64,000 nt of DNA from Phycisphaerae bacterium (GCA_049678285.1 JBAUDW010000071.1:294-64293), one strand, 5' to 3'; positions 5,433 through 54,692 are shown, counted from the first letter of the stretch. Notes: a model not told the origin generated them from the letters alone. Numbers and translations: made by a program.

Positions 5433-5451
5433 GGGTATTCCCTCCTTCAGT

Positions 5452-16267: not shown

Positions 16268-16391
16268 GACCTCTCCTGGACCCAGGTCTGTGGAGACATG
16301 GGAGGAGATTCTGCGGAACAGGTGATGGATCTGGCGCTCGCTTGAGTGCTGTGTCCACGGCTGCCGCACGAGAAGAGGGGAGGTCGTGAGA

Positions 16392-26128: not shown

Positions 26129-26275
26129 GCGACTTCCGCTCGGCGCGTCCCCGGGGCCAAGAGCCTATCCGAATAACCGGGTTGTGACGAGGTCTTCGCA
26201 GTCGGCCGCAGTAGACACGGTTGTTCGGATAGGCTCTAAGGCCGGACTTAAGGCGTGCAGACCATCACCGCATCT

Positions 26276-29298: not shown

Positions 29299-29598
29299 AT
29301 GGCAGGGAAACGCAGACGGTTTTCGGCGGAGTTCAAGGCCCGGGTCGTTCGAGCGGCGCTCCGGGAAGACAAGACGCTGGCGGAGTTGGCTGGCGCGTTC
29401 GAGGTGCATCCGAACCAGATCACCGAGTGGAAGCGTCAGGTGCTGGAGGCCATGCCGGATCTGTTTGGTCGTCGCAAGCAGGCCGACGCGAAGTCGGCCG
29501 AGGAGCACGAGGCTCGGCTGTACCAGCAGGTCGGTCAGCTCCAGGTGGAACTGGAGTGGCTGAAAAAAAAAGCTCGGCAGCTTGGCATGGACGTCTGA
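29299..29598 (+). CDS. IS3-family transposase OrfA (HTH)
   Basis: [36 protein letters not shown]; ends [10 protein letters not shown] at the A9 run. Confidence 0.85.
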
Positions 29599-30673
29599 GG
29601 CGAAGCGAATGATGGTCGAACGCGACAATCCGAACATCCCTGTCGTCCGGCAGTGCGAGTTGCTGACGCTGTCGCGCAGCAGCCTGTACTACCGCCCCGC
29701 TCGCGACGAGGAGGCCGAGGCCTTCGAGTGTCGGGTCTTGAACGCCATCGACGAGTTGTACACGGCCCGTCCGCACCTGGGGCGGTACGGCATGACCGAC
29801 GCCCTGGCCCAGGAGCGACAACTCGAGGTGAACCCCAAGCGGGTGCGTCGGCTGATGAAGATGCTGGGGTTGGAAGCGGTCTATCCTCGGCCGCGGCGGA
29901 ACACGTCGCAGGCCAGTGCCGAGCACCCGAAGTACCCATACCTGCTGCGGAACGTGGAGGTTAGCGCCGTGGATCAGGTCTGGTGCGCGGACCTCACGTA
30001 CATCCGGCTTCATCGAGGCTTTGCCTACCTGGTGGCGGTGATGGACTGGTTCAGCCGCTGCGTGCTGGCGTGGGAGTTGAGTAACACGCTGGACGCGAAC
30101 TTCTGCGTGGAGGCCTTGGCGCGGGCCTTGGCTTCGGGCCGGCGGCCGGCGATCTTCAACACCGACCAGGGCAGCCAGTTTACGAGCGAGGCCTTCACGA
30201 CGGTGCTGATGGAGGCGGGGATCGCCATCAGTATGGACGGGGTGGGCCGGGCGTTCGACAACATCATGGTCGAGCGGCTGTGGCGGACGGTGAAGTACGA
30301 GGAGGTGTACCTGCGGGACTACGAGACGCCGGCGGAGGCCCGCTTGGGGCTGGGTCGGTACTTCAGGTACTACAACCATCAGCGGCGACACAGGAGCCTG
30401 GATCGGCGGACCCCGGCCAGCGTGTATGGCTTGGCCGAGCCGGCCACGGTCCAGCGGGCTCTTGTGCGGCTGGTGAGAAGCGATAGAATCGAGACACCTG
30501 CCTTCGCCAAGGCTTCGGCGGGCAGGGGCGGCGGGCGTTCCGTCGCCGCGAATGCTGCTGTCGCTCCGGTCGCCCTCCGGGCTCCCTCCGCGACAGCAGC
30601 GGGAACGTTACCCATGGCGACGGTTCCACCTTATTCCAGGCTGGAAACTGTCCAGCGCATGGGGACAAGCTAA
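29582..30673 (+). CDS. IS3-family transposase OrfB (DDE integrase core)
   Basis: [43 protein letters not shown]. It has a low-complexity C-terminal tail running into the right end. Confidence 0.9.
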
Positions 30674-32751: not shown

Positions 32752-33917
32752 TCGAAGGCCGGACCATCCTGTGTTTCGCCAGCGGCTACGACGCGCCGCC
32801 GACCAGCAAGCACCACGTGATGCACTTGCTGGCCGAGCGGAACACCGTGCTCTGGGTCAACTACCACGCCTCCCGTGCGCCCACGGCCAGTGCATCGGAC
32901 CTTCGTTACATGGCCCGGAAGGTAGGCCAGATCCTCCGGGGCATCACGAACCCGCGCAAGAACCTGTACGTGCTGACGCCACCTGTCCTGCCGCTGCCGG
33001 GTAGTGCGATAGCCAAACGCATCAACCGTCGCCTGCTCATCGCAAGGATTCGGTCGGCGCTGAGGCGCGTGGGGCACGGCCCCGTGCAGGTCTGGTCGTT
33101 CACGCCTGACATCTCGTACCTCCTGGGCCATTTCGGCGAAGAGAAGGTCGTCTATTACTGTGTCGACGATCACGCCTCGTTCTCGGGATACGATGCGGAG
33201 CAGGTAAGGCGCGACGAGGCCGATCTGTGCCGGAAGGCCAACTTGGTGGTGACGACTTCGCACGCCCTCCAGGAGGCCAAGGCCCCGTTGAATCCCAACA
33301 CGATCCTGGTGACCCACGGCGTCGATTACGAACATTTCTCGAAGGCCGTGACCGAGGACCTGGCCGTGCCGGAGGACATTAAGGACATACCGCACCCGAT
33401 TCTGGGCTTCTTCGGCCTCATCCGCGACTGGGTGGACCTGGACCTCCTTGCCGAGGTCTGCCGCCTGCGGCCGGACTGGCATGTCGTTCTCATCGGCGAC
33501 TCGACGGTGAACCTGGCGCCGTACCGGGGCATCCCGAACATGCATTTCCTCGGCCGCCGGCCGTACGCGGACCTGCCGGCCTACTGCAAGGCATTCGACG
33601 TTGGCCTGATCCCGTTCAGGATGAATGAGTTGACCAAGGCCGTCAACCCCATCAAACTGAAAGAATACCTGGCGGCGGGGCTGCCGGTGGTCTCGACGCC
33701 CCTGCCCGAGGTGCGGCTTTACGATCATCTGGTCGAAGTGGTGGAGGATGCCCGGGCTTTCGCCGCCTCGGTCGAGTCATGCCTGGCGCGGGGCGCGGAT
33801 GTCCGGAGCGAACGCTCACGCTCCATGGCGTCCGAGACTTGGGCCGAGAAGGTGAGTTTCATCTGCTCGCATCTTCAGCGCGCGGCCGTGGCCGGCCTCG
33901 CGAGAGGAACGCCATGA
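32748..33917 (+). CDS. GT4-family glycosyltransferase
   Basis: Start ATG overlaps the VanZ stop (ATGA). GT4 C-terminal domain blocks (VLIGDS.., DVGLIPF, EYLAAGLPVVSTP). Confidence 0.75.
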   Translation: MIEGRTILCFASGYDAPPTSKHHVMHLLAERNTVLWVNYHASRAPTASASDLRYMARKVGQILRGITNPRKNLYVLTPPVLPLPGSAIAKRINRRLLIARIRSALRRVGHGPVQVWSFTPDISYLLGHFGEEKVVYYCVDDHASFSGYDAEQVRRDEADLCRKANLVVTTSHALQEAKAPLNPNTILVTHGVDYEHFSKAVTEDLAVPEDIKDIPHPILGFFGLIRDWVDLDLLAEVCRLRPDWHVVLIGDSTVNLAPYRGIPNMHFLGRRPYADLPAYCKAFDVGLIPFRMNELTKAVNPIKLKEYLAAGLPVVSTPLPEVRLYDHLVEVVEDARAFAASVESCLARGADVRSERSRSMASETWAEKVSFICSHLQRAAVAGLARGTP

Positions 33918-35461
33918 GCAGCGCGCGAGTCCACGCCCGCAATCTGCTCGCCAACTGGACGGCTCACGGCGCCAACCTGGTGGTGCTGTTCTTCCTCTCG
34001 CCGTTCATCGTTCACACGCTCGGCAAGACGGAGTACGGCATATGGAGCCTGCTGACGGTCCTGACGGGGTACCTGGGCGTCTTCGACCTGGGCGTCCGCG
34101 CCAGCACAGGGCGCTACGTCATCCTGTACCTTGGGCAAGGCGACCACGAGAAGCTCGACCAGACGGTCCGGACGGGTCTGGGCTTCTTCAGCGTCGCGGG
34201 GCTGCTGATCATCCTGGCGAGCGTCGTCGTCGGCATCGGGTTCCCCACGTTCTTCCCGTCGTCACCGGCGGAGTACCATGCCCAAGTCGGGGTGCTCCTG
34301 CCCATCCTGGCCGTCAACATCTGGCTCTCCGTCGTCGGCGCCATTTTCGGGAGCGTCCTGATGGCCCACGACCGGTTCGATCTGATGCGGACTGTGGACC
34401 TCACTGTCCTTGCCGTCCGCACCGGCGGCACGGTGGCGGCCCTGCTCCTGGGGTACGGCATCGTGGGGCTGGCCCTGGCGACGGTGGCCTGCGGCGTGCT
34501 GGCGGTAGCGGGGAACTACATCCTGGCGCGGCGGATCTATCCGCGCCTCCGCGTCTGGCCCCTGACGCTCGTCCGGGCGCGGCTGCGCGAACTGTTCGGC
34601 TACGGCATTGCGGCCTTCATCTCGAACGTGGCCGTCAAGATCATCGGCCAGACGGACCTGATCATTGTCGGCGCGCTCATCAGCGTGGGGGCCGTGACGG
34701 TCTACTCCGTCGGAGCCATGCTGGTCTACTATTCCTGGACTTTTCTGGGCCACATCGGTTCGACTCTCTTCCCTCCTGTGCAGCGTGCGGCAAGCACGGG
34801 GGACTACGAGTCGGTCCGATGGTACTACCTTCGCCAAGTCCGCTTGGGGTTCGTTTTCGGCGTGCCCGCCTACATCGGGTTCATCATGTTCGGGGAACCG
34901 TTTATCCGGCTCTGGATGGAAGACGCCACGTTCCCTGCAACTGCGGTCCACCAAGCCGCCGTCGTTATGACCATTCTGAGCCTGTCGAAACTGTTCTCCC
35001 TATCGTCCATCGGGGCCACGACGCTACTCGCGGCCACCGGCCATATCCGCTACAGCGCCACCGTCAAGGTCTTAGAGGCGGTGCTGAACCTGGGGCTTTC
35101 CGTCTTCTTCGTGCTTGTGAGTGATTGGGGCCTGGCCGGCGTCGCGGCCGGCACGTTGGTCGCCCGCGTGTTGGTCAGCGCCGTTCTCCTTCCCTGGCGG
35201 GCGAACCGCGCGGTCAAGACCCGGGCAATGAGATTCCTGGGGGTCCTCGGCCTGGGGCTGGTGGCAGGGGGGGGGTTCGCCGGATGGTGCTTCCTGATGC
35301 GGTCTGTGATTCCGGGCGGGTCGTGGGCGATGTTCTGGGTCCAGGTGGCCCTGGCCCTGCTGGGCTACATGCCGATGGCGTTTTCCCTATTGGTGCCGCC
35401 GGCGGATAGAAACCGCTTCCTCCGCCTCCTCAAAGTTGTCCGCACCCGGCGTACGGAGTGA
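33914..35461 (+). CDS. Wzx-like oligosaccharide flippase (polysaccharide biosynthesis protein, MOP/PST superfamily)
   Basis: 515 aa with ~12-14 TM helices and an N-terminus typical of PST-family flippases (LLANWTAHGANLVVLFFLSPFIVHTLGKTEYGIW). ATGA overlap with the upstream glycosyltransferase. Confidence 0.75.
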   Translation: MSSARVHARNLLANWTAHGANLVVLFFLSPFIVHTLGKTEYGIWSLLTVLTGYLGVFDLGVRASTGRYVILYLGQGDHEKLDQTVRTGLGFFSVAGLLIILASVVVGIGFPTFFPSSPAEYHAQVGVLLPILAVNIWLSVVGAIFGSVLMAHDRFDLMRTVDLTVLAVRTGGTVAALLLGYGIVGLALATVACGVLAVAGNYILARRIYPRLRVWPLTLVRARLRELFGYGIAAFISNVAVKIIGQTDLIIVGALISVGAVTVYSVGAMLVYYSWTFLGHIGSTLFPPVQRAASTGDYESVRWYYLRQVRLGFVFGVPAYIGFIMFGEPFIRLWMEDATFPATAVHQAAVVMTILSLSKLFSLSSIGATTLLAATGHIRYSATVKVLEAVLNLGLSVFFVLVSDWGLAGVAAGTLVARVLVSAVLLPWRANRAVKTRAMRFLGVLGLGLVAGGGFAGWCFLMRSVIPGGSWAMFWVQVALALLGYMPMAFSLLVPPADRNRFLRLLKVVRTRRTE

Positions 35462-35624
35462 TGCCGTGGCCCGTGAGGCAGAAGTCTCTGAAGACGGGAG
35501 CCGACCATGAAGATCGCGGGTTGCTTCGCGCAGAAAGGTATCGGCTGCCCGGCAAAGACGGGTGCTGTGACTCCTGCATTCTTCTAGGGGTTTGGAGTAG
35601 GCTTCCGGCACAAGGATCCGCCCG

Positions 35625-37163
35625 ATGAGCACGTTCCAGCGTCTCCACCGCAAGGGCCAATTCATGCTGGGCCCACCGTCGTTCTCCAGCGCACACGGGT
35701 GGAACACCCTTCAGATCGATGCCGACCTGCTGCTGGCGGCGCATCCCGACGTTCCCCTCTCCCACACCAAGAAAGGCCACACGTCTTTGACATGCCTCGG
35801 GAATCTCTTGGACCCGAGGGCTCCGGAAAACACCAACAGCGATATCCTGAACCGCCTCTGCGACCAGGTATCGCAAAGCGGGCAGCTTGATGATCTTCTT
35901 CGACTGACCGACGGCCTCTTCGGGCGATGGGCGATCATTGCCGCATGCGGCTCGGACGCCATCCTGATGCACGATGCCGCGGGGCAACGGCAAGTCCACT
36001 ACGTGCGCCACGAGGGGAAAATGTATTGCGCCTCGCAGGCGGGCGCGATCGCGGAACGTCTGGGTTTTGCGCCCGACCCGGAGGCGATCCGATGGCGGGA
36101 GCATATGCGGGACCATCTCGGCGAGGTGTTCCACCACCAGTTCTGGTGGCCGGGGAACCGGAGCATGTTCGCGGAAGTCCGGCGGTTGCTTCCCAACCAC
36201 GTCCTCAGGCTGCGCACAGGGGAGGCGTGCCGCTTCTTCGGCCAGGGAAGCCTTGAACGCCGATCGCTGGACGAGGCGGTCCGGGTGGGGGCCGAGCTGA
36301 TGCAGGGCGCCCTCCAGAGTGCGCGACACCGCGGTCCCCTGGCAATTTCGTGTTCGGCCGGCTGGGACTCGCGAGCGATGATGGCCGCTTCGCTGCCGCT
36401 CCGCAACGACGTCCTGTACTTCTCGCGGCGGTTCTACTATCGGAGTCTCCGCCATCGGGACCTCGCAATCCCAAGGAGGCTCCTTGCCAGGGCCGATATC
36501 CGGCATCGCATCCTGAACATGCCACCGGCCGTCACCGACGAATTCGCCTCCATCTACCGGGCCAGCGTCGACGCGCCGCACGAGGACTGGGCCCTGATGG
36601 CCGAGGGCCTCGCCCGAATCCTTCCCGCCGACACGCTGATCGTCGTGGGCAACGTGTCGGAAACGTGCCGGCACCAATACCGGCACGGCGGCCCAGTGAC
36701 GCACGTGACGCCGGAGGTGCTGGCCCAAAGGACGGGCATGCAGCCCGATCCGTTCGCCCTGGAGGCCTTCGGGGACTGGCTGGATGCGGCGCGTTTTGGG
36801 GAGTCCTTCCATCCGTTCGATATGTGCCAATGGGAGCAACGCTCGGGCAGCTGGGCGGCCGAGATGAACGGCGAGGTCGCGATCGCGCATGAACAGATCT
36901 CCGCCTACAATTGCCGCGAGCTGCTCGCGACGCTGCTGTCGGTCGACGAACTGTATCGCCGCGGCCCGGACCACGAACTGTATCAGCGGCTCATCACACA
37001 CATGTGGCCGGACGGCCTGTCGGAGCCCATCAATCCTCCCATGGCGCCGCCTTCGTTCCTCGAGAGGGGGCTGGACAGGGCAAAATCGCTCGTTCGCCGA
37101 GTGCTCCCCGGGCACGCCGCAGGGCTGGCCAAAAGGTTCCTAAGGCGTTCCCGCGGCGTCTGA
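35625..37163 (+). CDS. asparagine synthetase (AsnB)-like amidotransferase paralog 1, N-terminal glutaminase domain degenerate (no Cys-2)
   Basis: PP-loop-like ISCSAGWDSRAMMAA (SGGxDS-type) and AsnB-like N-domain blocks (DGLFGRWAIIA..), but no N-terminal nucleophile Cys. Confidence 0.6.
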   Translation: MSTFQRLHRKGQFMLGPPSFSSAHGWNTLQIDADLLLAAHPDVPLSHTKKGHTSLTCLGNLLDPRAPENTNSDILNRLCDQVSQSGQLDDLLRLTDGLFGRWAIIAACGSDAILMHDAAGQRQVHYVRHEGKMYCASQAGAIAERLGFAPDPEAIRWREHMRDHLGEVFHHQFWWPGNRSMFAEVRRLLPNHVLRLRTGEACRFFGQGSLERRSLDEAVRVGAELMQGALQSARHRGPLAISCSAGWDSRAMMAASLPLRNDVLYFSRRFYYRSLRHRDLAIPRRLLARADIRHRILNMPPAVTDEFASIYRASVDAPHEDWALMAEGLARILPADTLIVVGNVSETCRHQYRHGGPVTHVTPEVLAQRTGMQPDPFALEAFGDWLDAARFGESFHPFDMCQWEQRSGSWAAEMNGEVAIAHEQISAYNCRELLATLLSVDELYRRGPDHELYQRLITHMWPDGLSEPINPPMAPPSFLERGLDRAKSLVRRVLPGHAAGLAKRFLRRSRGV

Positions 37164-37199
37164 CGACGAGGCACGACTTCTGCACCCGAAAGGGCGGAA

Positions 37200-39059
37200 A
37201 TGAAGATTGCGGTTTGTTTCGCACGCCAGAGCATCGACGGTGAAGACGCCGTCCGCCGCATGACGGAAGCCATGCGCCTCAGCGACGAACAGGCGTGCCA
37301 GACATTCAAAGTCGCCGGTGGGGCGCTGGGGTGCGTGACGACCTCCGATGCCCGCGGCGCGGTGCCGCTGATGCGCCGCAGCGCCAGCGGAAACCTGTTG
37401 CTCATCGCGGGCGTGCCTGTGGACCTGGAGGGGTCGCTCGACGAGCGCCTGGAGACCGTCGTCAAGGGAGACCACGCGCGGGCGGTGGCCAATCTGACGG
37501 CGCTGGACGGGGCCTTCGCCGCCCTCTTTTGGGACGCGTCCAACGAGCGGTTGGTGGCCGTGACGGATCCGATGGGTATGCAACCTCTGTACATGTTCCG
37601 TAGCAACGGGATGCTCCTTCTTGCGACGGAACTGAAGGCCTTTCCTGCGAGCAACCACGTCGCGGTTGAGATGGACCCGGTAGGATGGGGCGCCTTTATT
37701 TCGTTGGGGTTCGCCGTCGGCCCGGCGACGCAACTGGCGGGCGTGGTCCGGGTCGAGCCAGCCAACATCATGACCTACAGCGTGCCCGAGGACCGCCTGG
37801 AGACACAGGCATACTGGCGCTGGCCGCCCCCTCGTCCCGAAACGAACCTGGAGGATGTGGATACCGGTCATCTGCTGAATCTGCTGCAGCAGGAACTCCG
37901 GGCGTATGCCTCGCATTCGAGCCGCGGCACGGTGCTGCTCAGCGGCGGGTTCGATTCGCGGCTTCTCCTGGCGCTGTTACGGAAAACCGGCATGAACCCC
38001 GGCGCCTTGATCGTGAGGCACCCCGGGGAGCTTGGCGGAGCGGACGGACAGTACGCTCGGCGGGTGGCCAAGCGGCTCAACTTGGGGGACTTTGTCGTCG
38101 CACATCCGCCCAAACGCTTCTACACATCCCCCGGCTACGTGAAATATCTTGTCATGAGCGAAGTGGCGACGCCGAGCCTTCGCCTGTTCATCGCCCAGGT
38201 GCCGCAATTTCTGAGCCCCGGCATGGGAGCCATCTGGGAAGGCGTTGCGCCGGGGTTCGTCTTCGCGCCAGCCGTCCCGTTCCCCGGAGGCTTCGACACC
38301 TATTGCAGGATTCGGTGTCGTTTGGGGGGTTCCGACCAATGGCGCGTGGCAGGTCGAGTCTTCGCCCGCAAGGACCTGTACGAAGCCTTTGAGGCCGCAC
38401 TGCGCGAGGAAACGGGCCGATATCGCGACGACGAGTTCGGCGTAGCCGAATTCCAGGCGAAGAACCAGATGCGCCGTCGACTGGCCGTCAACCCGCTCGT
38501 CGCGTGCGCCAACATCGTCCTCCCTTTCACGCCCGGGCTGAGCCGCGCGCTATGGGAAGAGGTTGTGGGGCTGCCGTTTCACGTCAGGGACCACAAGCGG
38601 CTTTACCTCCGCGTCTTCCGGGAACACTTCCCGGAAGCTCTCCGCGTGCCGATCTGCTCGGGGGCAAGCCTGTACAGCGAGCGCACTTTCACGCCGGGCC
38701 TGTGGGCGCGGCGGACGTTCGACTGGCTCGGGCGACGCTGCGCGTACTACAGCCGGCGACTGGGGCGGGTGCCCGGCATCGGGCCGGTATTTCGGACCCT
38801 GGACTGGGCGCCGCAAACCAACGAACTGGTCACAGGCGTCGTCCGGTCGATCGACCTCGACCATTCAGACCTCAACGCCGACGTTGTGCGGACCGTCCAG
38901 ACGAGCCATCCGCCCTATGACTGGGATGTGAGGCTCGCCCGCTCCTTGCTCTTCTACTGGCAGACGTGGCGGTGGATCATGCAAGGCCGGCTCACCACGT
39001 GGAATGCAGAAACCTTCTTGCACGAACAGGTGCAGAGCGCCCAGAGGGACAAGGCGTGA
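37200..39059 (+). CDS. asparagine synthetase (AsnB)-like amidotransferase paralog 2
   Basis: DGAFAALFWDASNERLVAVTDPMGMQPLYM (AsnB N-domain) and VLLSGGFDSRLLLALL (PP-loop). The N-terminus MKIAVCFAR lacks the canonical MCG start. Confidence 0.75.
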   Translation: MKIAVCFARQSIDGEDAVRRMTEAMRLSDEQACQTFKVAGGALGCVTTSDARGAVPLMRRSASGNLLLIAGVPVDLEGSLDERLETVVKGDHARAVANLTALDGAFAALFWDASNERLVAVTDPMGMQPLYMFRSNGMLLLATELKAFPASNHVAVEMDPVGWGAFISLGFAVGPATQLAGVVRVEPANIMTYSVPEDRLETQAYWRWPPPRPETNLEDVDTGHLLNLLQQELRAYASHSSRGTVLLSGGFDSRLLLALLRKTGMNPGALIVRHPGELGGADGQYARRVAKRLNLGDFVVAHPPKRFYTSPGYVKYLVMSEVATPSLRLFIAQVPQFLSPGMGAIWEGVAPGFVFAPAVPFPGGFDTYCRIRCRLGGSDQWRVAGRVFARKDLYEAFEAALREETGRYRDDEFGVAEFQAKNQMRRRLAVNPLVACANIVLPFTPGLSRALWEEVVGLPFHVRDHKRLYLRVFREHFPEALRVPICSGASLYSERTFTPGLWARRTFDWLGRRCAYYSRRLGRVPGIGPVFRTLDWAPQTNELVTGVVRSIDLDHSDLNADVVRTVQTSHPPYDWDVRLARSLLFYWQTWRWIMQGRLTTWNAETFLHEQVQSAQRDKA

Positions 39060-40540
39060 AACTTGATCCGCAACCCGTTCCGGCTTGGCCGAAACTGGCC
39101 TGGGTGGCCACGTTGCGACCCGGTGCCGATAAGATTACCATCTACCACGGGCCCTGTGTTGAAACCAGCCGCGACTGGTGCGCGGAGGCCGTCTGGGCGG
39201 GGGAATACGCGCGCGGCGACTTCGACCGGACGGACCTGGTTTTCGGGAGCGGCCTGAGGCGCCGCGAACACAGGGTGGTCTTTGTCAGCGCCGGCACGAC
39301 CCTCGACCGCTTGTGGTACCATCGCGGAACCGATGCCTGGCATGTAGCCAACTCGCTGCCTGCGCTCCTGGCGGTGGCCGGAACTTCCCTCGCCGGGATC
39401 CCCGCGGACTATGCCCGCGACGTGGACACCATCGGGCAGGGACTGACCGGCTACAAGCGGCGACTGCCCGCGGCGACCGGCGAACTGTACGTCCAGTACT
39501 TCCACAATCTCGTCTGGGACGGCCAAAGCCTGGGCGAGGCGGAGAAACCCGACACCGCTCCGCGCTTCGACACTTTCGAAACCTACGCTGCTTATCTGAG
39601 AGACACCGCCGAGCAGTTGGCAACCAACATGAACAATCGCGCCCGAGCGCACGCCGTGACGCCGCTGGTCACCGTCTCCCAGGGATATGATTCCTCCGCG
39701 GCAGCCGTCGTGGCTCGCCTCGCGGGTTGCCGGCAGTCGGTCACCATCCGGCAGTCGACGAGTCTGTGGCGGGGATCGGACTCCGGCGAGGAGGTGGCAC
39801 ACCACCTGGGCCTGGATTGCGCGACGTACGACCGGACCGCCCGCCAGTACCCGCTTGAGGAGGCAATCTGGGCGGTGGCAGGACGGGCCAGCATCCTCAA
39901 TTGGACGCTCTTCGACTACCCCCAGCCGCTGTGCTTGTTTTTCACGGGCTCGTACGGTGACAAGATGTGGAGCCGCAAGCGCCGGGAATACCGCGACCCG
40001 TTCCAGGGGACAAGCCTCTCGCACGGCGGTATCGGAGAGTTTCGCCTCGTTCGGGGCGTCTTCCACTGCCCGGTGCCGTTCTGGGGTATGCGGCACATAC
40101 ACGAGTTACAGGAAACCTCCTTCTCCGAGGTCATGCAGCCTTGGTCGGTGGGCGGCAACTACGACCGCCCGATAGCCCGGCGGCTGGTCGAAGAGGCTGG
40201 TGTGCCCCGCACGGCGTTCGGACAGCGCAAGAAGAACACCTCGCACGACGCGGCGCTGCTCTGGCCATATACGCCCGAAACCGCGGCGTCCTTTCGCCAT
40301 TTCTTGGCCGCGCGCGGCCTGCCGGCACCAGGGCCGACCCGTGTGTGGCTGCGACGGCGTACGAACTCGCTTGCTCACCTGGTCGAAGCAAACGTATTGC
40401 GGCCATTCACCGCAGCATTGCGCCACCGGCAGGAACAAGCCACGTATGCGGCTGCGGACGTACTATTCCACTGGGCGAATGCCGAACTGACGAAGCGATA
40501 CAAGGCAGGCCTCCGGGACATCGAGCAGCCACTGCCATGA
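39056..40540 (+). CDS. AsnB-related PP-loop ATP-pyrophosphatase-like protein (paralog 3; no recognisable glutaminase domain)
   Basis: GTG start at 39056 overlapping the upstream stop (GTGA). Degenerate PP-loop VTVSQGYDSSAAAVVA. The C-terminal half is AsnB-synthetase-domain-like. Confidence 0.5.
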   Translation: MKLDPQPVPAWPKLAWVATLRPGADKITIYHGPCVETSRDWCAEAVWAGEYARGDFDRTDLVFGSGLRRREHRVVFVSAGTTLDRLWYHRGTDAWHVANSLPALLAVAGTSLAGIPADYARDVDTIGQGLTGYKRRLPAATGELYVQYFHNLVWDGQSLGEAEKPDTAPRFDTFETYAAYLRDTAEQLATNMNNRARAHAVTPLVTVSQGYDSSAAAVVARLAGCRQSVTIRQSTSLWRGSDSGEEVAHHLGLDCATYDRTARQYPLEEAIWAVAGRASILNWTLFDYPQPLCLFFTGSYGDKMWSRKRREYRDPFQGTSLSHGGIGEFRLVRGVFHCPVPFWGMRHIHELQETSFSEVMQPWSVGGNYDRPIARRLVEEAGVPRTAFGQRKKNTSHDAALLWPYTPETAASFRHFLAARGLPAPGPTRVWLRRRTNSLAHLVEANVLRPFTAALRHRQEQATYAAADVLFHWANAELTKRYKAGLRDIEQPLP

Positions 40541-42312
40541 CCAAGATCTGCGGACTGGTGTCGGAAGACCCCGACCTTCGCGTGCCGAAGGTCCTGGACC
40601 GGATGTACGACGCGTCCTGGCACTCGGGCTACGTGCGCCGGGAGGTCTGGTCGGAGGGGCCGGTCGGGCTGGGCCACTTCAGCCTGGGCGCCGTCAACAC
40701 CGAGCCGCAGCCGCTCCACGACGAGGCCCTCGGCGCGGCGATTGTTTACTGCGGCAAGATTTTCGACTACGACCGCCACAGGGCCCGACTGCGGAAGTCC
40801 GGCGTCCGATTCGCACTCCCCGACAACGACGCCGAATTCTTCCTGCACCTCCTCGCCGCCTCGGGGACCGAGCACCTTGCGGAACTGAACGGCATCTTCT
40901 CGCTGGCCCTGTGGAACGCGGCCGACCGATCGGTCACGCTGATCAACGACCGGTACGGGTTTCGCCCGCTCTACTACTATCACGATGCGGCGCGAGGCGT
41001 GTTGGCCTTCGCTTCGGACCTCAGGGCCATCCTGGCGACAGGCCTGCCGCCGCTGCGGGTGAACTGGCCGGCCGTCAACACGTTCCGCCACTACGGCCAC
41101 CTGCTGGGCGAGGAGACGCTGTTCGAGGGCATCCGTCGCCTGCCGTCGGCGGGCGTTCTGACCTTCGAGGACAATCAGGTCCGCCTCGAGCGCTACTGGT
41201 GGCTCCGGGACCTCCCGGTGCGCGAGGGCATGTCGCTCGACGAGGCCGTGGACGGCTGCGTGACGCTTTTCCAGCAGGCCATCCGCCGGCGCCTGAACGC
41301 CACGCCGGCCCGGCACATCGTGACGCTGAGCGGCGGGCAGGACTCGCGGCACATTGCGGCCGAACTGAAACGGCAGCAGGTCGAGTTCACGGCCTACACC
41401 ACCACGGGGTTCAAGCCGATGCTGGCGGACAAGGTGCTCGCCGCCGCCGCGGCAGACGCCCTGGGCGTGCCGCACGTGTATGTGCCGCTGCCCAGGCAGG
41501 GCGTCCTGACGCACTACTGGCCTCGTGCCCACGCCCTCATGGACTACGAGGTCGACCTGCACCAGGCGATCCTGCCGCTCGTGGACGCCCTGCCCGCCGA
41601 GCCCCACGTCAACTTCGACGGCATTGTGGGCGACGTCTGTCTGGCCAGCCTGTTCCTAAACGAGCACGACTACCGGTTGGCCCGGGAGGGCCGCCTGGAC
41701 GAGTTGACTCGCCAGGCGCTCGAGGCGGGGCGGAGTCCGCCGATCTTCCACCCGTCGATCGCGCGGCACCTGGACGAGGGGCTCCTTTACGACATCATTC
41801 TGGCCCAGTTCCAGGTGTTCGAGGGCCACCCGAACCTGATTACGTTTACGTACATGTCCGGGCGCACGACGCGCGCCATTCCGCTCTTCGCCTTCAAACT
41901 CGTGGCCGAGAAGGCCGAGACTTTCTACCCGTACGCCGACAACGATTTTCTCGAGTTCGCCATGAGCATCCCGCCGGAACACAAACTGGACCGCCGGCTG
42001 CACCGGCGCATTCTGGACCGGGCGTATCCCGAGTTGCGCGGGGTGCCGACGACCAAGGAGATCGACCCCAGGAACTACGTGCGCGACGAGATCAACTATC
42101 ACGGGCAGCGATGCCGGTTCCTGCGCCAGGGTCTGTGGCAGATGCTGCGGGGCCGGCCGTGGGTCTATGACCGCCGGCGGGCACTGCCCCGGCTCCTGCT
42201 GGACGTGGCCGTTTCGTCGCTAGGGCGAGTCCGACAGTCCTTCCTCTGCAACTACGCCAACATGGTCCTGGTCCAGTGGTTCATGCGGTACTTCCCCGAT
42301 GGCGTTGACTGA
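40537..42312 (+). CDS. asparagine synthetase (glutamine-hydrolysing)-like amidotransferase paralog 4 (Cys at position 5, possible short propeptide)
   Basis: ATG overlaps the upstream stop (ATGA). MTKICGLV..., HFSLGAVN, NGIFSLALWN..DRYGFRPLYY, IVTLSGGQDSRHIAAEL: a full AsnB architecture. Confidence 0.8.
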   Translation: MTKICGLVSEDPDLRVPKVLDRMYDASWHSGYVRREVWSEGPVGLGHFSLGAVNTEPQPLHDEALGAAIVYCGKIFDYDRHRARLRKSGVRFALPDNDAEFFLHLLAASGTEHLAELNGIFSLALWNAADRSVTLINDRYGFRPLYYYHDAARGVLAFASDLRAILATGLPPLRVNWPAVNTFRHYGHLLGEETLFEGIRRLPSAGVLTFEDNQVRLERYWWLRDLPVREGMSLDEAVDGCVTLFQQAIRRRLNATPARHIVTLSGGQDSRHIAAELKRQQVEFTAYTTTGFKPMLADKVLAAAAADALGVPHVYVPLPRQGVLTHYWPRAHALMDYEVDLHQAILPLVDALPAEPHVNFDGIVGDVCLASLFLNEHDYRLAREGRLDELTRQALEAGRSPPIFHPSIARHLDEGLLYDIILAQFQVFEGHPNLITFTYMSGRTTRAIPLFAFKLVAEKAETFYPYADNDFLEFAMSIPPEHKLDRRLHRRILDRAYPELRGVPTTKEIDPRNYVRDEINYHGQRCRFLRQGLWQMLRGRPWVYDRRRALPRLLLDVAVSSLGRVRQSFLCNYANMVLVQWFMRYFPDGVD

Positions 42313-45960: not shown

Positions 45961-47336
45961 ACATGCTGCACGTGTCTGCGCTGCCCGTCTGGTCGATGGG
46001 GGGCAAGGGAGGCATGCCCTCGCTCCACGAGACGATCCGCGGCCACGTCGCGAGCGGCCACGGAATCACCCTCCTGCTGCCCCGCTACAACCTGATGTCG
46101 GACGACCTGGAGCCGGTCCAGGTGCCGCTTGGCATCGGCGCCGAGGTCCACGTCGTGCCGTGTCTGTGGCTGCCGGCCCTTAAGCGGGCCAGGGCCGCAG
46201 GCCGATATCTGGGGAAGGGAGGCGAGTTGCCGTACCCCCTCCGCTGGCTGCTCAACCTGGCAACCATGTTCCTGCTGACGGCCAGCTTGGTCTGGGCGGC
46301 CCTCAGGCTGAGGCATCGGGCAAGAAGGCGCTTCGACCTCGTGTACGCGCACAACCAGTATGCGGCGATGGCCGGATGGCTGATCGCCTGCATCCTGAAG
46401 GTGCCCAACGTGACCCGTCTCTACGGAACGTTCCTGGCAGATCTCATGAGAAGGCCACTGGTGTGGTTGCGCTACCCCGTGGCCGCGGCCGGCTACCTTG
46501 TCCCCCACGACTTGCTGATCTGCGCGAACGACGGAACGCGCGGCGACGAGGTCGCGCGGCAGCTGGGCATCGACCTCAAGCGTTTCCGATTCTGGCAGAA
46601 CGGCGTCGACAGGCCCGTTTCCCTTCCCGGGGACAGCCGCCATGCCCTTACGGACAAGGCCCCGGTCAATCTGCGGTGCGACAGCAGGTGGATCATCAGT
46701 TGCTCCCGACTGGCAAACTGGAAGCGGGTCGATCGTATCATCCGCGCGCTGCGGATCTGCCGATGTAAGGGCTGTGACGCGCAACTGCTGATCGTGGGGG
46801 ACGGTCCCGAGGCGGACAGGCTGAAATCCCTGGCCGCGGAGCAGGGAGTGGCCCGCGACGTCGTGTGGTTCGGGACCGTGGCGCACCGGGAGGTGTGGTG
46901 CCTCATGGGACTGTCCGACGTCTTCGTGATCGCCAACGACGTGACGAACCGCTGCAACCCTCTTTACGAGGCCATCTGCATGGGCTTGCCGGTCGTGTCC
47001 GTGTTCGACCCCAGTACGCAGGACCTGCTCAAGGATGGCGAGAACGCCTTGCTGGCGGACCGCGAAGACGAAGCCCGACTTGGCGAGCAGATGTACAGGG
47101 CCTGCACAGACGCCGACCGCGCGGCGCGAATGAGAGAGGCGCAGCGCCAGCGCGCCGATACGTTCTGGACCTGGGAAGCGCGCATGGAGGCGGAGGCCGC
47201 GGAACTCGCGAGGCTCGTTCGCCGCCGCCACGCCGCCTCTGGAAGCAAAAGCCCCGGCCGCGACACAAGGCAGCCCGCGCGCGGGGGGCAGGAACAAGGC
47301 TCCCGCTGGCCGGGGTACCGCAACCATGCCAGTTAA
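45957..47336 (+). CDS. GT4-family glycosyltransferase
   Basis: ATGA overlap with the deacetylase. C-terminal GT4 blocks (LLIVGDGPE.., NPLYEAICMGLPVVSV). Confidence 0.7.
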   Translation: MNMLHVSALPVWSMGGKGGMPSLHETIRGHVASGHGITLLLPRYNLMSDDLEPVQVPLGIGAEVHVVPCLWLPALKRARAAGRYLGKGGELPYPLRWLLNLATMFLLTASLVWAALRLRHRARRRFDLVYAHNQYAAMAGWLIACILKVPNVTRLYGTFLADLMRRPLVWLRYPVAAAGYLVPHDLLICANDGTRGDEVARQLGIDLKRFRFWQNGVDRPVSLPGDSRHALTDKAPVNLRCDSRWIISCSRLANWKRVDRIIRALRICRCKGCDAQLLIVGDGPEADRLKSLAAEQGVARDVVWFGTVAHREVWCLMGLSDVFVIANDVTNRCNPLYEAICMGLPVVSVFDPSTQDLLKDGENALLADREDEARLGEQMYRACTDADRAARMREAQRQRADTFWTWEARMEAEAAELARLVRRRHAASGSKSPGRDTRQPARGGQEQGSRWPGYRNHAS

Positions 47337-49947
47337 GACTCTCCTGTTTCTGGGAGGCTTCGCCGCTGTCGCCGTCGCGACGTTCTTCCACCCCCTGATC
47401 GGCGTCCTCGGTTACGCGGCAAACTACTGCATCGGCCCGGAGCGGCAATGGTGGGCGGCCGCCGTCAAGGACTGGGGCCTCCGGTACTCATTCACCCTGG
47501 CGGCCCTGACTGCGGTAAGCGCGCTCATCCACCGGCGAAAGTTGAACTACGGCAAGGTCCTGCTGGTGCGACACGAGAAACTCCTGCTCCTGTTCCTCGG
47601 AGCTGTGTGGCTGGCCTACCTGCTGGCGGCGCCCACCGAGGGACGATACAGCACCGTCGACCCTCCCGCCGTCAAGATGGTCAAGGTGATGATCTTTGTC
47701 CTCATGCTGACCCACATCGTCACGACCAGACAGAGGCTGGATGCATTCCTTTGGGCGTTGGTCGTTGGCGCGATGGTCCTGGGAATCCAGGCCTGGACGA
47801 CGCCCCGGTCCCAGTTCCTCCAAGGGCGACTTCAGGGCATCGGCGGCCCGGACTTCACGGACGCGAACTTCCTTGCGGCGTACCTGGCGGCCATGTTGCC
47901 GCTGATCGGGGTGATATTCCTTCGCACGACGTGGCCCGGGAAGGTCCTGTGCCTGGGGTCAGGTGTCTTCGTCACCAACGCCATCATCCTCACCCGCAGT
48001 CGCGGCGCGCTGGTCGGGCTCGCCGGAGGCCTGCTGACGGCCGTGCTCCTCGCGCCCAGGAAGTACCGTGCCAAGATCCTCATTGGCCTGGTGGTGGCCG
48101 GCATCGGCGGCTACGCGCTCACGGATCCGCAGTTCATCCAACGCGCCGCCACCATCACGCGCGACAGCGAGGAACGCGACCGTGCCTCGCAGAGCCGGCT
48201 GGAGATCTGGGAGGGCGGCGTGGCAATGTTCCAGGATCATCCGATGGGCGTCGGCCCTGGAAATTTCTACCAGAACATCGGCCGCTACTCCCCCGTCAAC
48301 GCCGGCAAGGACGCCCACAACACGTTCGTCCGCTGTTTCACCGAGTTGGGGTTCCTCGGCATCGCCATTTTCCTCGCCCTGCTGGGTAACGCGGCAATTA
48401 CCCTTATACGCATGATAAGACGCTCAAGGAGGCTTCCCGCGGAGGAGGGAAGGTACCTCCTGCTGGCAGCCTATGCGATCGCCGTCAGCCTCGCCACTTT
48501 CGTCACGAGCGGCCTGACGGTGAGTTTCGTATACACGGAGGCCACCTGGTGGCTGCTGGCCCTGCCCGTCTGTCTGGAGCGTGCCGTCGCGAACCTCGAG
48601 GCCGAGGTCGTGCCCGTCTTGCCGGGCCGGAGGGGCCCTGCCCGCGCGCGAGTCGCCGCCTCCGCAGGAAGCCGCCCTTCGACCGGCCGAGGCCGGCCGA
48701 GGGCCCGCGGCCAGTCCACGGGACCCTACATGAGCCGAACCGAACCCCTGGGGGCATCCGCGCCACGTGCCGCGACGCCGGCCGACACCGCCCGGCACGA
48801 GCCGGCGCCTGACGCTCGCCGTGTGGCGATCCTCACCTCTGAACTGGGCGCCGGCGGCGCCGAGGCGGTCATTGTCCACCTGGCCGCGGGCCTGAAGACG
48901 CAGGGCGTCGAAGCGGTCGTCTGTTGCCTCCAAAGCAAGGGCGTCCGGGCAGCCGAGTTGGAGTCGCGCGGCGTGCCTGTCCATGCCCTCGAGAGCGCCC
49001 GGGGGTACGACCTCGGTGCCCTGATAGGTCTCCGGCGCTTCCTGAACACGTTCAGGCCCGATGTCGTGAGTGTTCATGACCGGTGGAGCCTGCCCTACGC
49101 CGCCCTGGTCTCTCTCGCCGGATGCCGGTGGCCGATTGTTTTCACGTCGCACGGCCTCATGTTTGGCGAACCCGAACGAGGCCGATGGCGGTACCGACTG
49201 GCGGCCCGACGTGTCTCGGCCGTGACCGCGGTGTCTCGCGAAGTGGCCGACCGTCATACCCGCTACTTCGGCTGGTCTGTCGAGCCCGAGATCGTGCCAA
49301 ACGGAGTGCCGCCCCAGAGGCGCTGCCCGGACCAGCGCCGCAGAATACGCGGTGAACTCGGGATCGCCAACGGGACCTTCGTGTTCCTGGCGGCCGGAAA
49401 CGCCCGACCCGAGAAGGCGTTCGAGGACCTGCTCCGTGCCGCGGCGGACCTGGGCGGCTCAGGCGCCCCGCGGGACTGGGCGGTCCTGGTGGCCGGGCGG
49501 ATCGCCGAGACCGACTACTGCCGGAACCTTCTCGCTCTTCACCAGCGTCTCGGCCTGACGCGGGTCGTCCGGTTCCTGGGTTTCCGGGACGACCTTGGGG
49601 CCCTGTACTCGGCCGCCGACGCCTTCGTGCTGTCCAGCCGGAGCGAGGGACTCCCCCTGGTCGTGCTCGAAGCCATGATGGCAGGTCTGCCGGTGATTGC
49701 CACTCGCGTCGGCGGCGTACCTCATGCGGTACAGGATGGCGGGGAACTGGTCGACCCGGCCCGCCCCGATCAACTCGGCCAGGCCATGCGCCGCCTCCTT
49801 GAGACGCCTCACCGGGCGGAAGCGATGGGCCTCCGGGCAAGCCAGAGGGCCATGAGCGAGTACAGTCTGGACCGGATGGTCACGCGCTACCGGGCGGTCT
49901 TTGACCGCGTCGTCTCATGCCACGGGCACAAGCGAAGGCACGGCTAG
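47326..49947 (+). CDS. Wzy/O-antigen-ligase-like polymerase domain fused (or directly followed in frame) by a GT4 glycosyltransferase domain
   Basis: The N-terminal ~430 aa are polytopic with the Wzy_C-like loop ..LTRSRGALVGLAGGLL... After a ~60-aa Arg/Ala/Pro-rich linker comes a complete GT4 domain (RVAILTSELGAGGAEAVIV..EGLPLVVLEAMMAGLPVIATRVGG). An in-frame ATG at 48730 would allow a separate second gene. Confidence 0.55.
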   Translation: MPVKTLLFLGGFAAVAVATFFHPLIGVLGYAANYCIGPERQWWAAAVKDWGLRYSFTLAALTAVSALIHRRKLNYGKVLLVRHEKLLLLFLGAVWLAYLLAAPTEGRYSTVDPPAVKMVKVMIFVLMLTHIVTTRQRLDAFLWALVVGAMVLGIQAWTTPRSQFLQGRLQGIGGPDFTDANFLAAYLAAMLPLIGVIFLRTTWPGKVLCLGSGVFVTNAIILTRSRGALVGLAGGLLTAVLLAPRKYRAKILIGLVVAGIGGYALTDPQFIQRAATITRDSEERDRASQSRLEIWEGGVAMFQDHPMGVGPGNFYQNIGRYSPVNAGKDAHNTFVRCFTELGFLGIAIFLALLGNAAITLIRMIRRSRRLPAEEGRYLLLAAYAIAVSLATFVTSGLTVSFVYTEATWWLLALPVCLERAVANLEAEVVPVLPGRRGPARARVAASAGSRPSTGRGRPRARGQSTGPYMSRTEPLGASAPRAATPADTARHEPAPDARRVAILTSELGAGGAEAVIVHLAAGLKTQGVEAVVCCLQSKGVRAAELESRGVPVHALESARGYDLGALIGLRRFLNTFRPDVVSVHDRWSLPYAALVSLAGCRWPIVFTSHGLMFGEPERGRWRYRLAARRVSAVTAVSREVADRHTRYFGWSVEPEIVPNGVPPQRRCPDQRRRIRGELGIANGTFVFLAAGNARPEKAFEDLLRAAADLGGSGAPRDWAVLVAGRIAETDYCRNLLALHQRLGLTRVVRFLGFRDDLGALYSAADAFVLSSRSEGLPLVVLEAMMAGLPVIATRVGGVPHAVQDGGELVDPARPDQLGQAMRRLLETPHRAEAMGLRASQRAMSEYSLDRMVTRYRAVFDRVVSCHGHKRRHG

Positions 49948-49956
49948 AAGCGTCGC

Positions 49957-51111
49957 ATGCACATTCTGTCCTTCTCATATTGCTTTCCGCGACACCAGGA
50001 CCCGACCTGGGGGGTGTTTGTCCTCCAGCGGCTGGCGGCCCTGGCGCGCCTGGTCGACCTCGAGGTCGCCAGTCCCGTGCCGGTGTTCCCGCTCCTGAGT
50101 CGCCTGCGCGGCCGCCTGCCCGCGCCCACCGAGGAGCACGCGGGCCTTCCTGTCCATTATCCGCGGTTCCTCTACGTCCCGGGCATCCTCAAGTCCATGG
50201 ACACCCGCCTGTACGCGCGCGGCCTGCGCGGGTGGCTGCGGGAGTATCTGCGGAAGCGGCCGGTCGACCTGCTGGACGCGCATTTTATCTGGCCCGACGG
50301 CGTGGGGGTTTCGCGCCTTGCCTGGCAGGCGGGGCTTCCCTACACGATTACCCTCCGGGGCAAGATCTACCCGTGCCTTGAAGACCGCCGCATGAAGCGG
50401 CAGTGCGCGGAGGCCCTACGACACGCGGCCGCCGTCATCAGCGTCAGCACGCCGATGGCGTTTGTTGCGGCCGACCTCGGCGCCCCGCCGGAGCGGATCC
50501 ACGTGATCCCGAATGGAGTGGACACAGAGGTCTTCTCGCCGAAGGACAAGGCCTGGGCGCGCGGCGAACTCGGGCTGCCGCTCGAAGGCCGGCTCCTCGT
50601 GACCGTTGGCCACCTGAAACCAAGCAAAGGCCACGGCGAGGTGGTTCAGGCCCTGGCCGGACTGCCGCGCGACATTCGCCTGGTGATCGTCGGCGGGGAA
50701 GCCCAGAGCGGCTATCGGCGCGAGTTGATGGCTCTGGCCAGCCGCCTGGGAGTGGCAGACCGCGTCTTGCTCACCGGGAAACAGCCCTACGAGCGGATCC
50801 CGCTCTACTTCAGCGCCGCGGACCTGAGTGTCCTGGCATCCTACCGCGAAGGATGCCCGAACGTGGTACTCGAAAGCCTCGCGTGCGGGACGCCCGTTGT
50901 CGCCACGCGGGTAGGGGCCGTCCCGGACCTCTTGACACCGGGCCGGAATGGTGCCATCGTACCTGTCGGCGACGCGGAGGCCTTGGCAGGGGCCCTCAGG
51001 GACACCCTTGCGGGGGTATGGCCGCCCGACGCGGTCAGCCGATCCCCGGCGGTCCGTTCGTGGGACGAGGTGGCCGAGCGCGTCCGCCGGGTCTTCGCCG
51101 CGGTCGTGTGA
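49957..51111 (+). CDS. GT4-family glycosyltransferase
   Basis: MHILSFSYCFP N-terminus and EGCPNVVLESLACGTPVVATRVG C-terminal block. Confidence 0.75.
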   Translation: MHILSFSYCFPRHQDPTWGVFVLQRLAALARLVDLEVASPVPVFPLLSRLRGRLPAPTEEHAGLPVHYPRFLYVPGILKSMDTRLYARGLRGWLREYLRKRPVDLLDAHFIWPDGVGVSRLAWQAGLPYTITLRGKIYPCLEDRRMKRQCAEALRHAAAVISVSTPMAFVAADLGAPPERIHVIPNGVDTEVFSPKDKAWARGELGLPLEGRLLVTVGHLKPSKGHGEVVQALAGLPRDIRLVIVGGEAQSGYRRELMALASRLGVADRVLLTGKQPYERIPLYFSAADLSVLASYREGCPNVVLESLACGTPVVATRVGAVPDLLTPGRNGAIVPVGDAEALAGALRDTLAGVWPPDAVSRSPAVRSWDEVAERVRRVFAAVV

Positions 51112-51131
51112 CGCCACCCAAAGGGGCTTGC

Positions 51132-54651: not shown

Positions 54652-54692
54652 ACCTCAGCAGGCGGCGCTACGAGGCGCCGGGGGGTGGATGC

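Follow-up and report, generated by a model that had tools for sequence, protein, structure and literature searches.

Four Consecutive Genes of the Asparagine Synthetase Superfamily

The stretch of DNA analysed here, a window of 64 kb from an uncultured Phycisphaerae bacterium with a GC content of 62–70%, contains four consecutive open reading frames (ORFs) on the plus strand whose products all belong to the superfamily of the asparagine synthetase AsnB. They are named g1 to g4 in the following.

35625 to 37163, plus strand: g1, 512 amino acids, a protein with the fold of AsnB and beta-lactam synthetase (BLS) from a small unannotated family
37200 to 39059, plus strand: g2, 619 amino acids, a divergent AsnB-like protein
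39056 to 40540, plus strand: g3, 494 amino acids, from a large, highly conserved unannotated family, with a GTG start overlapping the stop codon of g2
40537 to 42312, plus strand: g4, 591 amino acids, an AsnB-like protein of a distinct subfamily, with an ATG overlapping the stop codon of g3

The reading frames were found exactly where an earlier reading of the DNA (the sequence-only reading) had placed them. All four are intact and, with a GC content at third codon positions of 0.77–0.81, of the coding type. A spacer of 36 nucleotides separates g1 from g2, and the two overlaps which had also been described before were confirmed as GTGA at 39056–39059 and ATGA at 40537–40540, both downstream starts agreeing with the N-termini of the orthologues of g3 and g4.

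Membership of all four genes in the AsnB superfamily was likewise upheld, with a depth of homology that is very different for each of them. The clearest case is g4, which matches GATase_7 (2e-24), Asn_synthase (1e-12), and the asparagine synthetase model TIGR01536 (153.8 bits, cut-off 267.1 bits), followed by g2 with matches to GATase_7 (1.7e-10) and TIGR01536 (6e-20, 71.7 bits). For g1 there was no match in Pfam and a marginal one in NCBIfam (E about 1e-4), its score with TIGR01536 being 19.6 bits, and g3 did not match TIGR01536. Comparison with a canonical AsnB alignment, which was seeded with the E. coli enzyme, gave hhalign values of 100% for g4, 99.9% for g2, and 99.2% for g1, the last also reaching 98.5% with the g4 family; g2 and g4 align with canonical AsnB across 380–500 columns. 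Searches of g3 with Pfam, NCBIfam, BLASTP, and global hhalign were all without a match, and local hhalign yielded only 22–46%, around the PP-loop. AlphaFold 2 models of g1 and g3, built on the respective family alignments (predicted local distance difference test 91.1 and 91.5), match AsnB, BLS, and the carbapenam synthetase CarA lengthwise. With Foldseek the best hit of the g1 model was BLS (1.6e-13), followed by TsnB9, CarA, and AsnB, and then by the N-terminal nucleophile (Ntn) domains of PurF and GlmS. The AsnB homology of g1, to which sequence searches point only marginally, is thus established by the hhalign values of 98–99% together with the model. The N-terminal half of g3 had been regarded as unrelated to AsnB; as modelled, both halves of the protein are AsnB/BLS-like.

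The PP-loop is present in all four proteins. An SGGxDS motif had been ascribed to g1, g2, and g4, which is right for g2 (SGGFDSR, with SGG[FY]DSR invariant in the family) and for g4 (SGGQDS, with SGGxDS invariant), and wrong for g1, which has SAGWDS at residues 244–249 within an invariant family pattern xAGWDSR. The corresponding segment of g3 is SQGYDS at residues 208–213, where S-x-GYDS is invariant, so that the loops of g1 and g3 each have one glycine replaced.

Each gene has a family of its own. That of g1 comprises 31 homologues of about 500–530 amino acids with a common N-terminus, and that of g2 consists of 173 cluster representatives at E<=1e-30. The g3 protein is identical to WBD75_03675, a hypothetical protein of a Phycisphaerae metagenome-assembled genome (MAG), and its relatives number at least 499; the 120 best matches listed share 47–72% identity with it and come from Planctomycetota, Desulfobacterota, and others. 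For g4 there are 28 orthologues at 35–100% identity, after which the matches fall off steeply to generic AsnB. Neither g1 (about 30 relatives) nor g3 is covered by a Pfam or NCBIfam model, and the superfamily thus gains two families.

Local duplication, a possible origin of the array raised by the sequence-only reading, was rejected for g1 to g4. In an all-against-all BLASTP comparison the paralogues are at most 28% identical (g2 and g4 28%, g1 and g4 25%), g3 is undetectable by sequence against the rest, and each gene has its own orthologues, with 46–74% identity across phyla. This degree of identity, together with 43–122 positions per family that are at least 90% conserved, makes it evident from the alignments that g1 to g4 are under purifying selection.

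Two homologues of g3 were considered as domain fusions that might hint at a function. P0111 (723 amino acids) carries a weak C-terminal Alg14-like domain (31.2 bits, cut-off 27) and could be either a fusion with the membrane-anchor subunit of a glycosyltransferase or a gene-calling artefact; such a fusion would agree with glycan assembly, a point of little weight. P0002, an apparent g3-g3 fusion considered as a functional hint, was rejected as an artefact.

Loss of the Glutaminase Site

An alignment with E. coli AsnB, which the sequence-only reading had proposed for scoring the catalytic residues, was carried out with the numbering verified against 1CT9. None of the four proteins starts with Met-Cys, and the nucleophile Cys1 of AsnB is absent in g1, g2, g3, and g4. 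The expectation that g1 and g2 are no cysteine-dependent Ntn glutaminases therefore proved correct and extends to the whole array. At the Cys1 region g4 has Thr2 and g2 has Lys2 (or Met1); g3 begins with MKL, the start of g1 falls inside the N-domain alignment, and neither of these two contains a candidate nucleophile. Alternative Met-Cys starts were rejected, as no ORF from g1 to g4 can be extended to such a start and the N-termini of the orthologues agree with the chosen ones. A cysteine near the N-terminus is not confined to g4, as had been thought: g2 begins with MKIAVCF (family consensus MK[ILV]A[AVL]CF), its Cys6 being common in the family, not invariant, and aligned with Val6 of AsnB.

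The pocket for glutamine and the oxyanion is also rebuilt. The residues R49, N74, G75, E76, and D98 of AsnB correspond to S49, C72, G73, K74, and D98 in g4, to a gap followed by G71, V72, P73, and D91 in g2, and to D42, L58, G59, N60, and N71 in g1. Some public records name orthologues of g4 "asparagine synthetase B" (those of g1 and g3 are called "hypothetical protein"), as would be fitting if the array encoded ordinary glutamine-dependent asparagine synthetases. With Cys1 and the glutamine pocket lost, and with scores far under the equivalog cut-offs, this is hardly credible, and neither is a set of decaying duplicates, since every reading frame is intact and each family shows sequence conservation as well as synteny within exopolysaccharide (EPS) loci. 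The scores with TIGR03108, the model of the XrtA/PEP-CTERM system amidotransferase, are 125.4 bits for g4 and 68.5 bits for g2 against a cut-off of 816.9 bits, g1 and g3 giving no match. The labels of the g4 orthologues are hereby corrected.

The N-terminus of g4 deserves separate treatment. Within the subfamily it always reads M-[S/T]-[K/R], and none of about 40 orthologues has anything but Ser or Thr as residue 2. The sequence-only reading had suggested that Cys5 of the MTKICG start becomes the nucleophile after removal of a propeptide of four residues, as in PurF from B. subtilis. It is Thr2 rather than Cys5 that falls on the position of Cys1 according to hidden Markov model (HMM) coordinates, the alignment with TsnB9 (MCGVAGWVS against MSKICGLVS), and the hhalign map alike; Cys5 is replaced by Trp, Leu, or Gly in some orthologues, and the pocket is rebuilt (R49 to Ser, N74-G75-E76 to Cys-Gly-Lys, D98 kept), which leaves the propeptide model unsupported. 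The propeptide of B. subtilis PurF has 11 residues, not four.

Residue 2 would become N-terminal once the methionine is removed, and Ser and Thr are nucleophiles in other Ntn hydrolases. g4 might thus have kept an active Ntn amidohydrolase with an N-terminal Ser or Thr, releasing ammonia from an amide donor for use at its own synthetase site or at those of its partners. Besides the strict presence of Ser or Thr at this position in several phyla, the conservation of the M-[ST]-K-I-x-G segment and of a C/N/A-G-K triplet at the position of N74-G75-E76 is compatible with such an activity. The nearest outgroups, however, carry Ala (MAKICG in L020, a Methanosarcinales MAG) or Pro (MPGIFG in L025 and L028) at residue 2, so that the conservation may reflect a constraint for a small residue only. 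As R49, N74, and E76 are all lost in g4 and we know of no precedent for a Ser or Thr nucleophile in class-II amidotransferases, an active site of this kind is regarded as improbable. Smaller still is the credence given to a more far-reaching proposal, in which the class-II amidotransferase domain of the g4 subfamily has exchanged its Cys nucleophile for Ser/Thr and accepts another amide donor in the pocket rebuilt around C-G-K, and g2-g3-g4 form a multisubunit machine where g4 feeds nitrogen to several adenylating partners without glutaminase, so that the machine installs several amide or lactam groups in an exosortase-linked polysaccharide. If it were true, one of the partners would be g3, as a hidden branch of the AsnB/BLS superfamily that is large and has a conserved N-domain site of its own.

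Recurrence of the Array

Fetched loci were scanned with HMMs of the four families and of the flippase. Apart from the window, 12 distinct related loci contain runs of two to five AsnB-like genes, which removes the notion that four such genes in a row are unusual for this type of locus. The arrangements, including further EPS loci with single families, are as follows.

Window: flippase-g1-g2-g3-g4
L005: flippase-g1-g2-g3-g3-g4
L007, L012, L018: flippase-g2-g3-g4
L013: g2-g3-g4, flippase end not covered
L009: flippase-g2-g3-g2-g4
L010, L014, L015: flippase-...-g2-g3-g3-g4
L011: g1-...-g3-g2-g4
L008: flippase-g3-g4
L019: flippase-g4
L004: flippase-g1-g2-radical SAM-AMP ligase
L001 to L003: other EPS loci, g3 in two to three tandem copies, no g2 or g4
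L006: g1 alone in an ABC-type locus

The array thus proves to be a recurring module whose gene number varies and whose commonest core is g2-g3-g4, with g1 and extra copies of g2 or g3 as optional additions; the g3-g3 and g2-g2 repeats may be local duplicates. In related loci extending far enough a flippase gene lies upstream of the array, either adjacent or within about 1–2 kb, and the neighbours include glycosyltransferase, Wzy, CapK-like, ATP-grasp, FemAB-like, and deacetylase-like genes. The MAGs concerned are labelled Anaerolineales (one), Desulfobacteraceae, Syntrophotalea, Desulfuromonadales, Pirellulales, Sedimentisphaerales, and Planctomycetaceae. The sequence-only reading had allowed for the array being a common and already characterised feature. 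Common it is, and characterised it is not: the searchable literature yielded no description of a tandem AsnB-like module, only dispersed wbpS-like genes in betaproteobacterial PEP-CTERM clusters, and the PEP-CTERM paper of Haft 2006 does not mention such genes.

Overlaps of four nucleotides between start and stop codons, which had been taken as consistent with coupled translation and stoichiometric assembly, occur in L005, L007, L008, and L009 as well as in the window. Together with the fixed order of g2-g3-g4 in most loci they would suit an obligate hetero-oligomer, the alternative named by the sequence-only reading, for instance of g2, g3, and g4, in which one or two subunits are catalytic and the rest are scaffolds or substrate-channelling pseudoenzymes. 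A candidate for the latter would be g2. At the position of D351 in AsnB, where g4 keeps an aspartate (D366) and g1 has an acidic residue at or near it (E346), g2 has Gly, and since it also has few conserved charged residues it may be noncatalytic. AsnB, BLS, and CarA are homo-oligomers. Against an obligate complex stand the tandem copies of g3 without g2 or g4 in L001 to L003, g1 alone in L006, g1-g2 without g3 or g4 in L004 (within the sequenced part of the contig), g3-g4 without g2 in L008, the variable copy number, and the fact that the overlapping junction differs among loci. Stoichiometric assembly is weakened in particular because in other loci g3, g2, and g1 are each found where the rest are missing, and because the overlaps shift from junction to junction, and the hetero-oligomer is considered unlikely.

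Genomic Context in the Window

The array is part of a Wzx/Wzy-type, exosortase-associated EPS locus. The exosortase association, already recognised by the sequence-only reading, is confirmed by an exosortase-EpsI fusion and by PrsT/XrtA-type genes. The main features outside the array are the following.

843 to 5468, minus strand: PrsT-like tetratricopeptide repeat protein
5452 to 7140, minus strand: exosortase-EpsI fusion (TIGR02602 108.9 against a cut-off of 105.55; EpsI domain 60.2 against 42.8)
7348 to 8331 (minus strand), 13701 to 14975 (plus strand), and 29582 to 30673 (plus strand): transposase genes (IS3 family, IS701/IS4-like, rve integrase)
33779 to 35461, plus strand: Wzx/MurJ-type flippase with Polysacc_synt_3/MurJ matches, immediately upstream of g1
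35507 to 35587, plus strand: 26-codon ORF, MKIAGCFAQKGIGC / MKIAGCFAQKGIGCPAKTGAVTPAFF, in the 163-nucleotide spacer between flippase and g1, mimicking the 5' end of g2-family genes
61254 to 62903, minus strand: gene of the UDP-glucose/GDP-mannose dehydrogenase family with matches to three UDPG_MGDP_dh domains

Further genes of the window encode a priming phosphoglycosyl transferase, a Poly_export protein, an XrtA-type chain-length determinant, an XrtA-associated ATPase, a tyrosine kinase, an epimerase, and several glycosyltransferases of family 4 (GT4). Downstream of the array lie FemAB-like, GNAT, deacetylase-like, Wzy_C-GT4 fusion, radical S-adenosylmethionine (SAM)/SPASM, ATP-grasp, and CapK/PaaK-like genes. 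Most of the XrtA- or exosortase-associated proteins score below the equivalog cut-offs. Of the exosortase models the exosortase-EpsI fusion passes only the general one and stays below the cut-offs of the subtypes (the best being XrtD with 208 against 400 bits and XrtW with 164 against 425 bits); it may represent an undescribed subtype from Phycisphaerae. The three insertion sequence elements interrupt the EPS locus and part the region of the exosortase and the priming transferase from the export and assembly genes.

The 26-codon ORF upstream of g1 shares 20 of 23 nucleotides with the start of g2, counted from the ATG, and 12 of its 26 amino acids are identical to the N-terminus of the g2 homologue P0232. 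It is also the best non-self tblastn match of the g2 N-terminus in the window, a weak one (E 0.39). As the flippase is followed directly by g2 in related loci which lack g1, it looks like a remnant of an older flippase-g2 junction, possibly left behind upon insertion of g1. That g1 itself is a 5'-truncated or frameshifted gene starting at this upstream MKIAGCF reading frame was rejected, as the homologues share the N-terminus and the length of g1.

A Proposed Role in Amide Formation on the Polysaccharide

Members of the AsnB superfamily without glutaminase are known mainly from antibiotic pathways and from those of ribosomally synthesised and post-translationally modified peptides, examples being BLS, CarA, and the lasso-peptide cyclases. 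BLS and carbapenam synthetase are AsnB-type enzymes forming amide or lactam bonds without glutamine, and together with TsnB9 they are the closest solved relatives of the array proteins. The reading which we favour, at about an even chance of being correct, is that g1 to g4 are glutamine-independent, ATP-dependent carboxylate-amine ligases which tailor the lipid-linked repeat unit of the polysaccharide. The four proteins are anciently diverged and taken to be cytoplasmic, each with an Ntn-type N-domain and a PP-loop C-domain for which ATP-dependent adenylation is plausible. With ATP each enzyme would adenylate a carboxylate, most obviously that of a uronic acid, belonging either to the undecaprenyl-linked repeat unit or to a nucleotide sugar or amino acid substituent. 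The acyl-AMP would then be resolved by nitrogen other than glutamine-derived ammonia, in the form of free ammonia, of an amino acid or another amine, or of an amino group which the glycan itself provides. The product, made before flipping, would be an amide or lactam (uronamides, aminoacyl amides, lactams), and different paralogues might carry out different steps. Amide formation on the polymer, which had been suggested before, is still the most reasonable chemistry, and the dehydrogenase encoded at 61254–62903 could supply the uronic acid carboxylates.

Support for such ligases comes from the fold with BLS and CarA as its nearest structural relatives, from the loss of the glutaminase, from the glycan-assembly genes found next to the array throughout, from the conserved PP-loops, and from the presence of the dehydrogenase gene in the locus. 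Biofilm formation in Rubrivivax requires AsnB-like genes of a PEP-CTERM EPS cluster, and one of these follows wzxC directly (PMC3684757). Several features weigh against the proposal. Apart from the possible lack of catalysis in g2, the PP-loops of g1 and g3 depart from SGGxDS, and the N-domains of g3 and g4 contain many invariant polar residues which a ligase does not explain. The catalytic residue E348 of AsnB is replaced by N343 in g1, V349 in g2, and I363 in g4, and the C-terminal alignment of g1, g2, and g4 is too uncertain for the equivalents of K429 and K449 to be aligned reliably. BLS has a tyrosine (Y348) at the position of E348.

The likeness to BLS (1JGT) and CarA (1Q15) is one of fold, with only 9–18% identity and with the set of Tyr348, Glu382, and Lys443 of BLS unmappable on the array proteins, where moreover the PP-loops of g1 and g3 are variant. 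The context differs too: BLS and CarA belong to clavam and carbapenem clusters, whereas g1 to g4 lie in an EPS locus with flippase, glycosyltransferase, Wzy, deacetylase-like, ATP-grasp, and CapK-like genes. With E. coli AsnB and human ASNS (TIGR01536), g1, g2, and g4 share homology over the full length (hhalign 99–100%) and the PP-loop, the two-domain fold is common to AsnB and the array proteins, and g4 retains the equivalents of D98 and D351. The array proteins differ from these enzymes in the loss of Cys1, the replacement of R49, N74, E76, and E348, and their location in a polysaccharide operon. Among solved structures TsnB9 (7YLZ) is nearest to g4 in sequence (profile E 6e-29). This hydroxyamidotransferase of the polyketide (trichostatin) pathway shows that the AsnB scaffold can handle a nitrogen nucleophile other than ammonia; unlike g4 it keeps the MCG N-terminus. 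The psc1 and other WbpS-type proteins we take to be canonical MCG-type glutamine amidotransferases. The AsnB-like amidotransferase genes of polysaccharide loci (WbpS-type genes, those of the XrtA/PEP-CTERM system modelled by TIGR03108, and the three wbpS-like genes of the Rubrivivax/Thauera psc1 cluster) resemble the array as AsnB-superfamily genes in exosortase-type EPS clusters, one of them lying directly downstream of the Wzx flippase, and are needed for biofilm or floc formation; however, they are dispersed singly through the cluster (PMC3684757), whereas the window has a tandem run of distinct subfamilies without Cys1.

The lasso-peptide and macrolactam cyclases (NF033535, NF033561) are also AsnB-like proteins which form amide bonds and lack glutaminase. 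The proteins of the array might accordingly act on a peptide or protein, forming an isopeptide or macrolactam bond or joining a protein carboxylate to the EPS. The sub-threshold matches of g1, g2, and g4 to these cyclase models and the presence of an exosortase, a radical SAM/SPASM gene, and an MslH/CapA-like gene in the window would fit. The scores, however, are far under the cut-offs (for NF033535 109.7 bits for g4 and 49.4 bits for g2 against 525 bits), and for g2 and g4 they are weaker than those with the AsnB models. No genes for a precursor peptide or leader peptidase were found among the called neighbours, where small precursor ORFs were not systematically searched. The module lies between flippase and glycosyltransferases in every locus, and the proteins, judged by fold, resemble cytoplasmic enzymes, unlike the exported substrates of exosortases. 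Action on a peptide or protein is therefore held to be very unlikely.

Returning to the ligases acting on the glycan, the finding is real, and it is a variation on known enzyme chemistry. If the proposed function is right, the existence of a conserved module with three to five different enzymes of this kind among the polysaccharide genes of widespread, uncultured Planctomycetota and Desulfobacterota would point to an unexplored repertoire of amides and lactams on exopolysaccharides. Its practical value would lie in defined candidate enzymes for amide bonds on sugars; it resolves no long-standing question.

Further Observations

A trio of ATPgrasp_Ter, deacetylase-like, and CapK/PaaK-like adenylating genes is found at 52283–56069 (plus strand) of the window as well as in L001 to L003 and L007 to L009. 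It is usually accompanied by FemAB-like/Acetyltransf_6 genes, occurs in most of the inspected related loci regardless of g2 and g4, and is probably a second conserved tailoring module. The radical SAM/SPASM gene of the window, of the peptide-maturase or heme-synthase type (about 51100–52382, plus strand, within the ORF 50403–52382), is flanked by a GT4 glycosyltransferase gene and an ATP-grasp gene and has no evident polysaccharide role; in L004 a lysine-aminomutase-like radical SAM gene directly follows g2.

An ORF of 873 amino acids at 47326–49947 (plus strand) combines Wzy_C (O-antigen ligase/polymerase-like) with a complete GT4 glycosyltransferase, an unusual fusion. Two long ORFs overlap on opposite strands, of which the one at 26276–28681 (minus strand) has three VanZ-like stretches and the better third-position GC content, the other at 26255–28207 (plus strand) having no match. 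A gene at 16386–17363 (plus strand), upstream of the export genes and close to one for a hybrid histidine kinase, encodes a FeeM-like N-acyl amino acid synthase of the GNAT type, which hints at an acyl-amino acid product tied to the locus.

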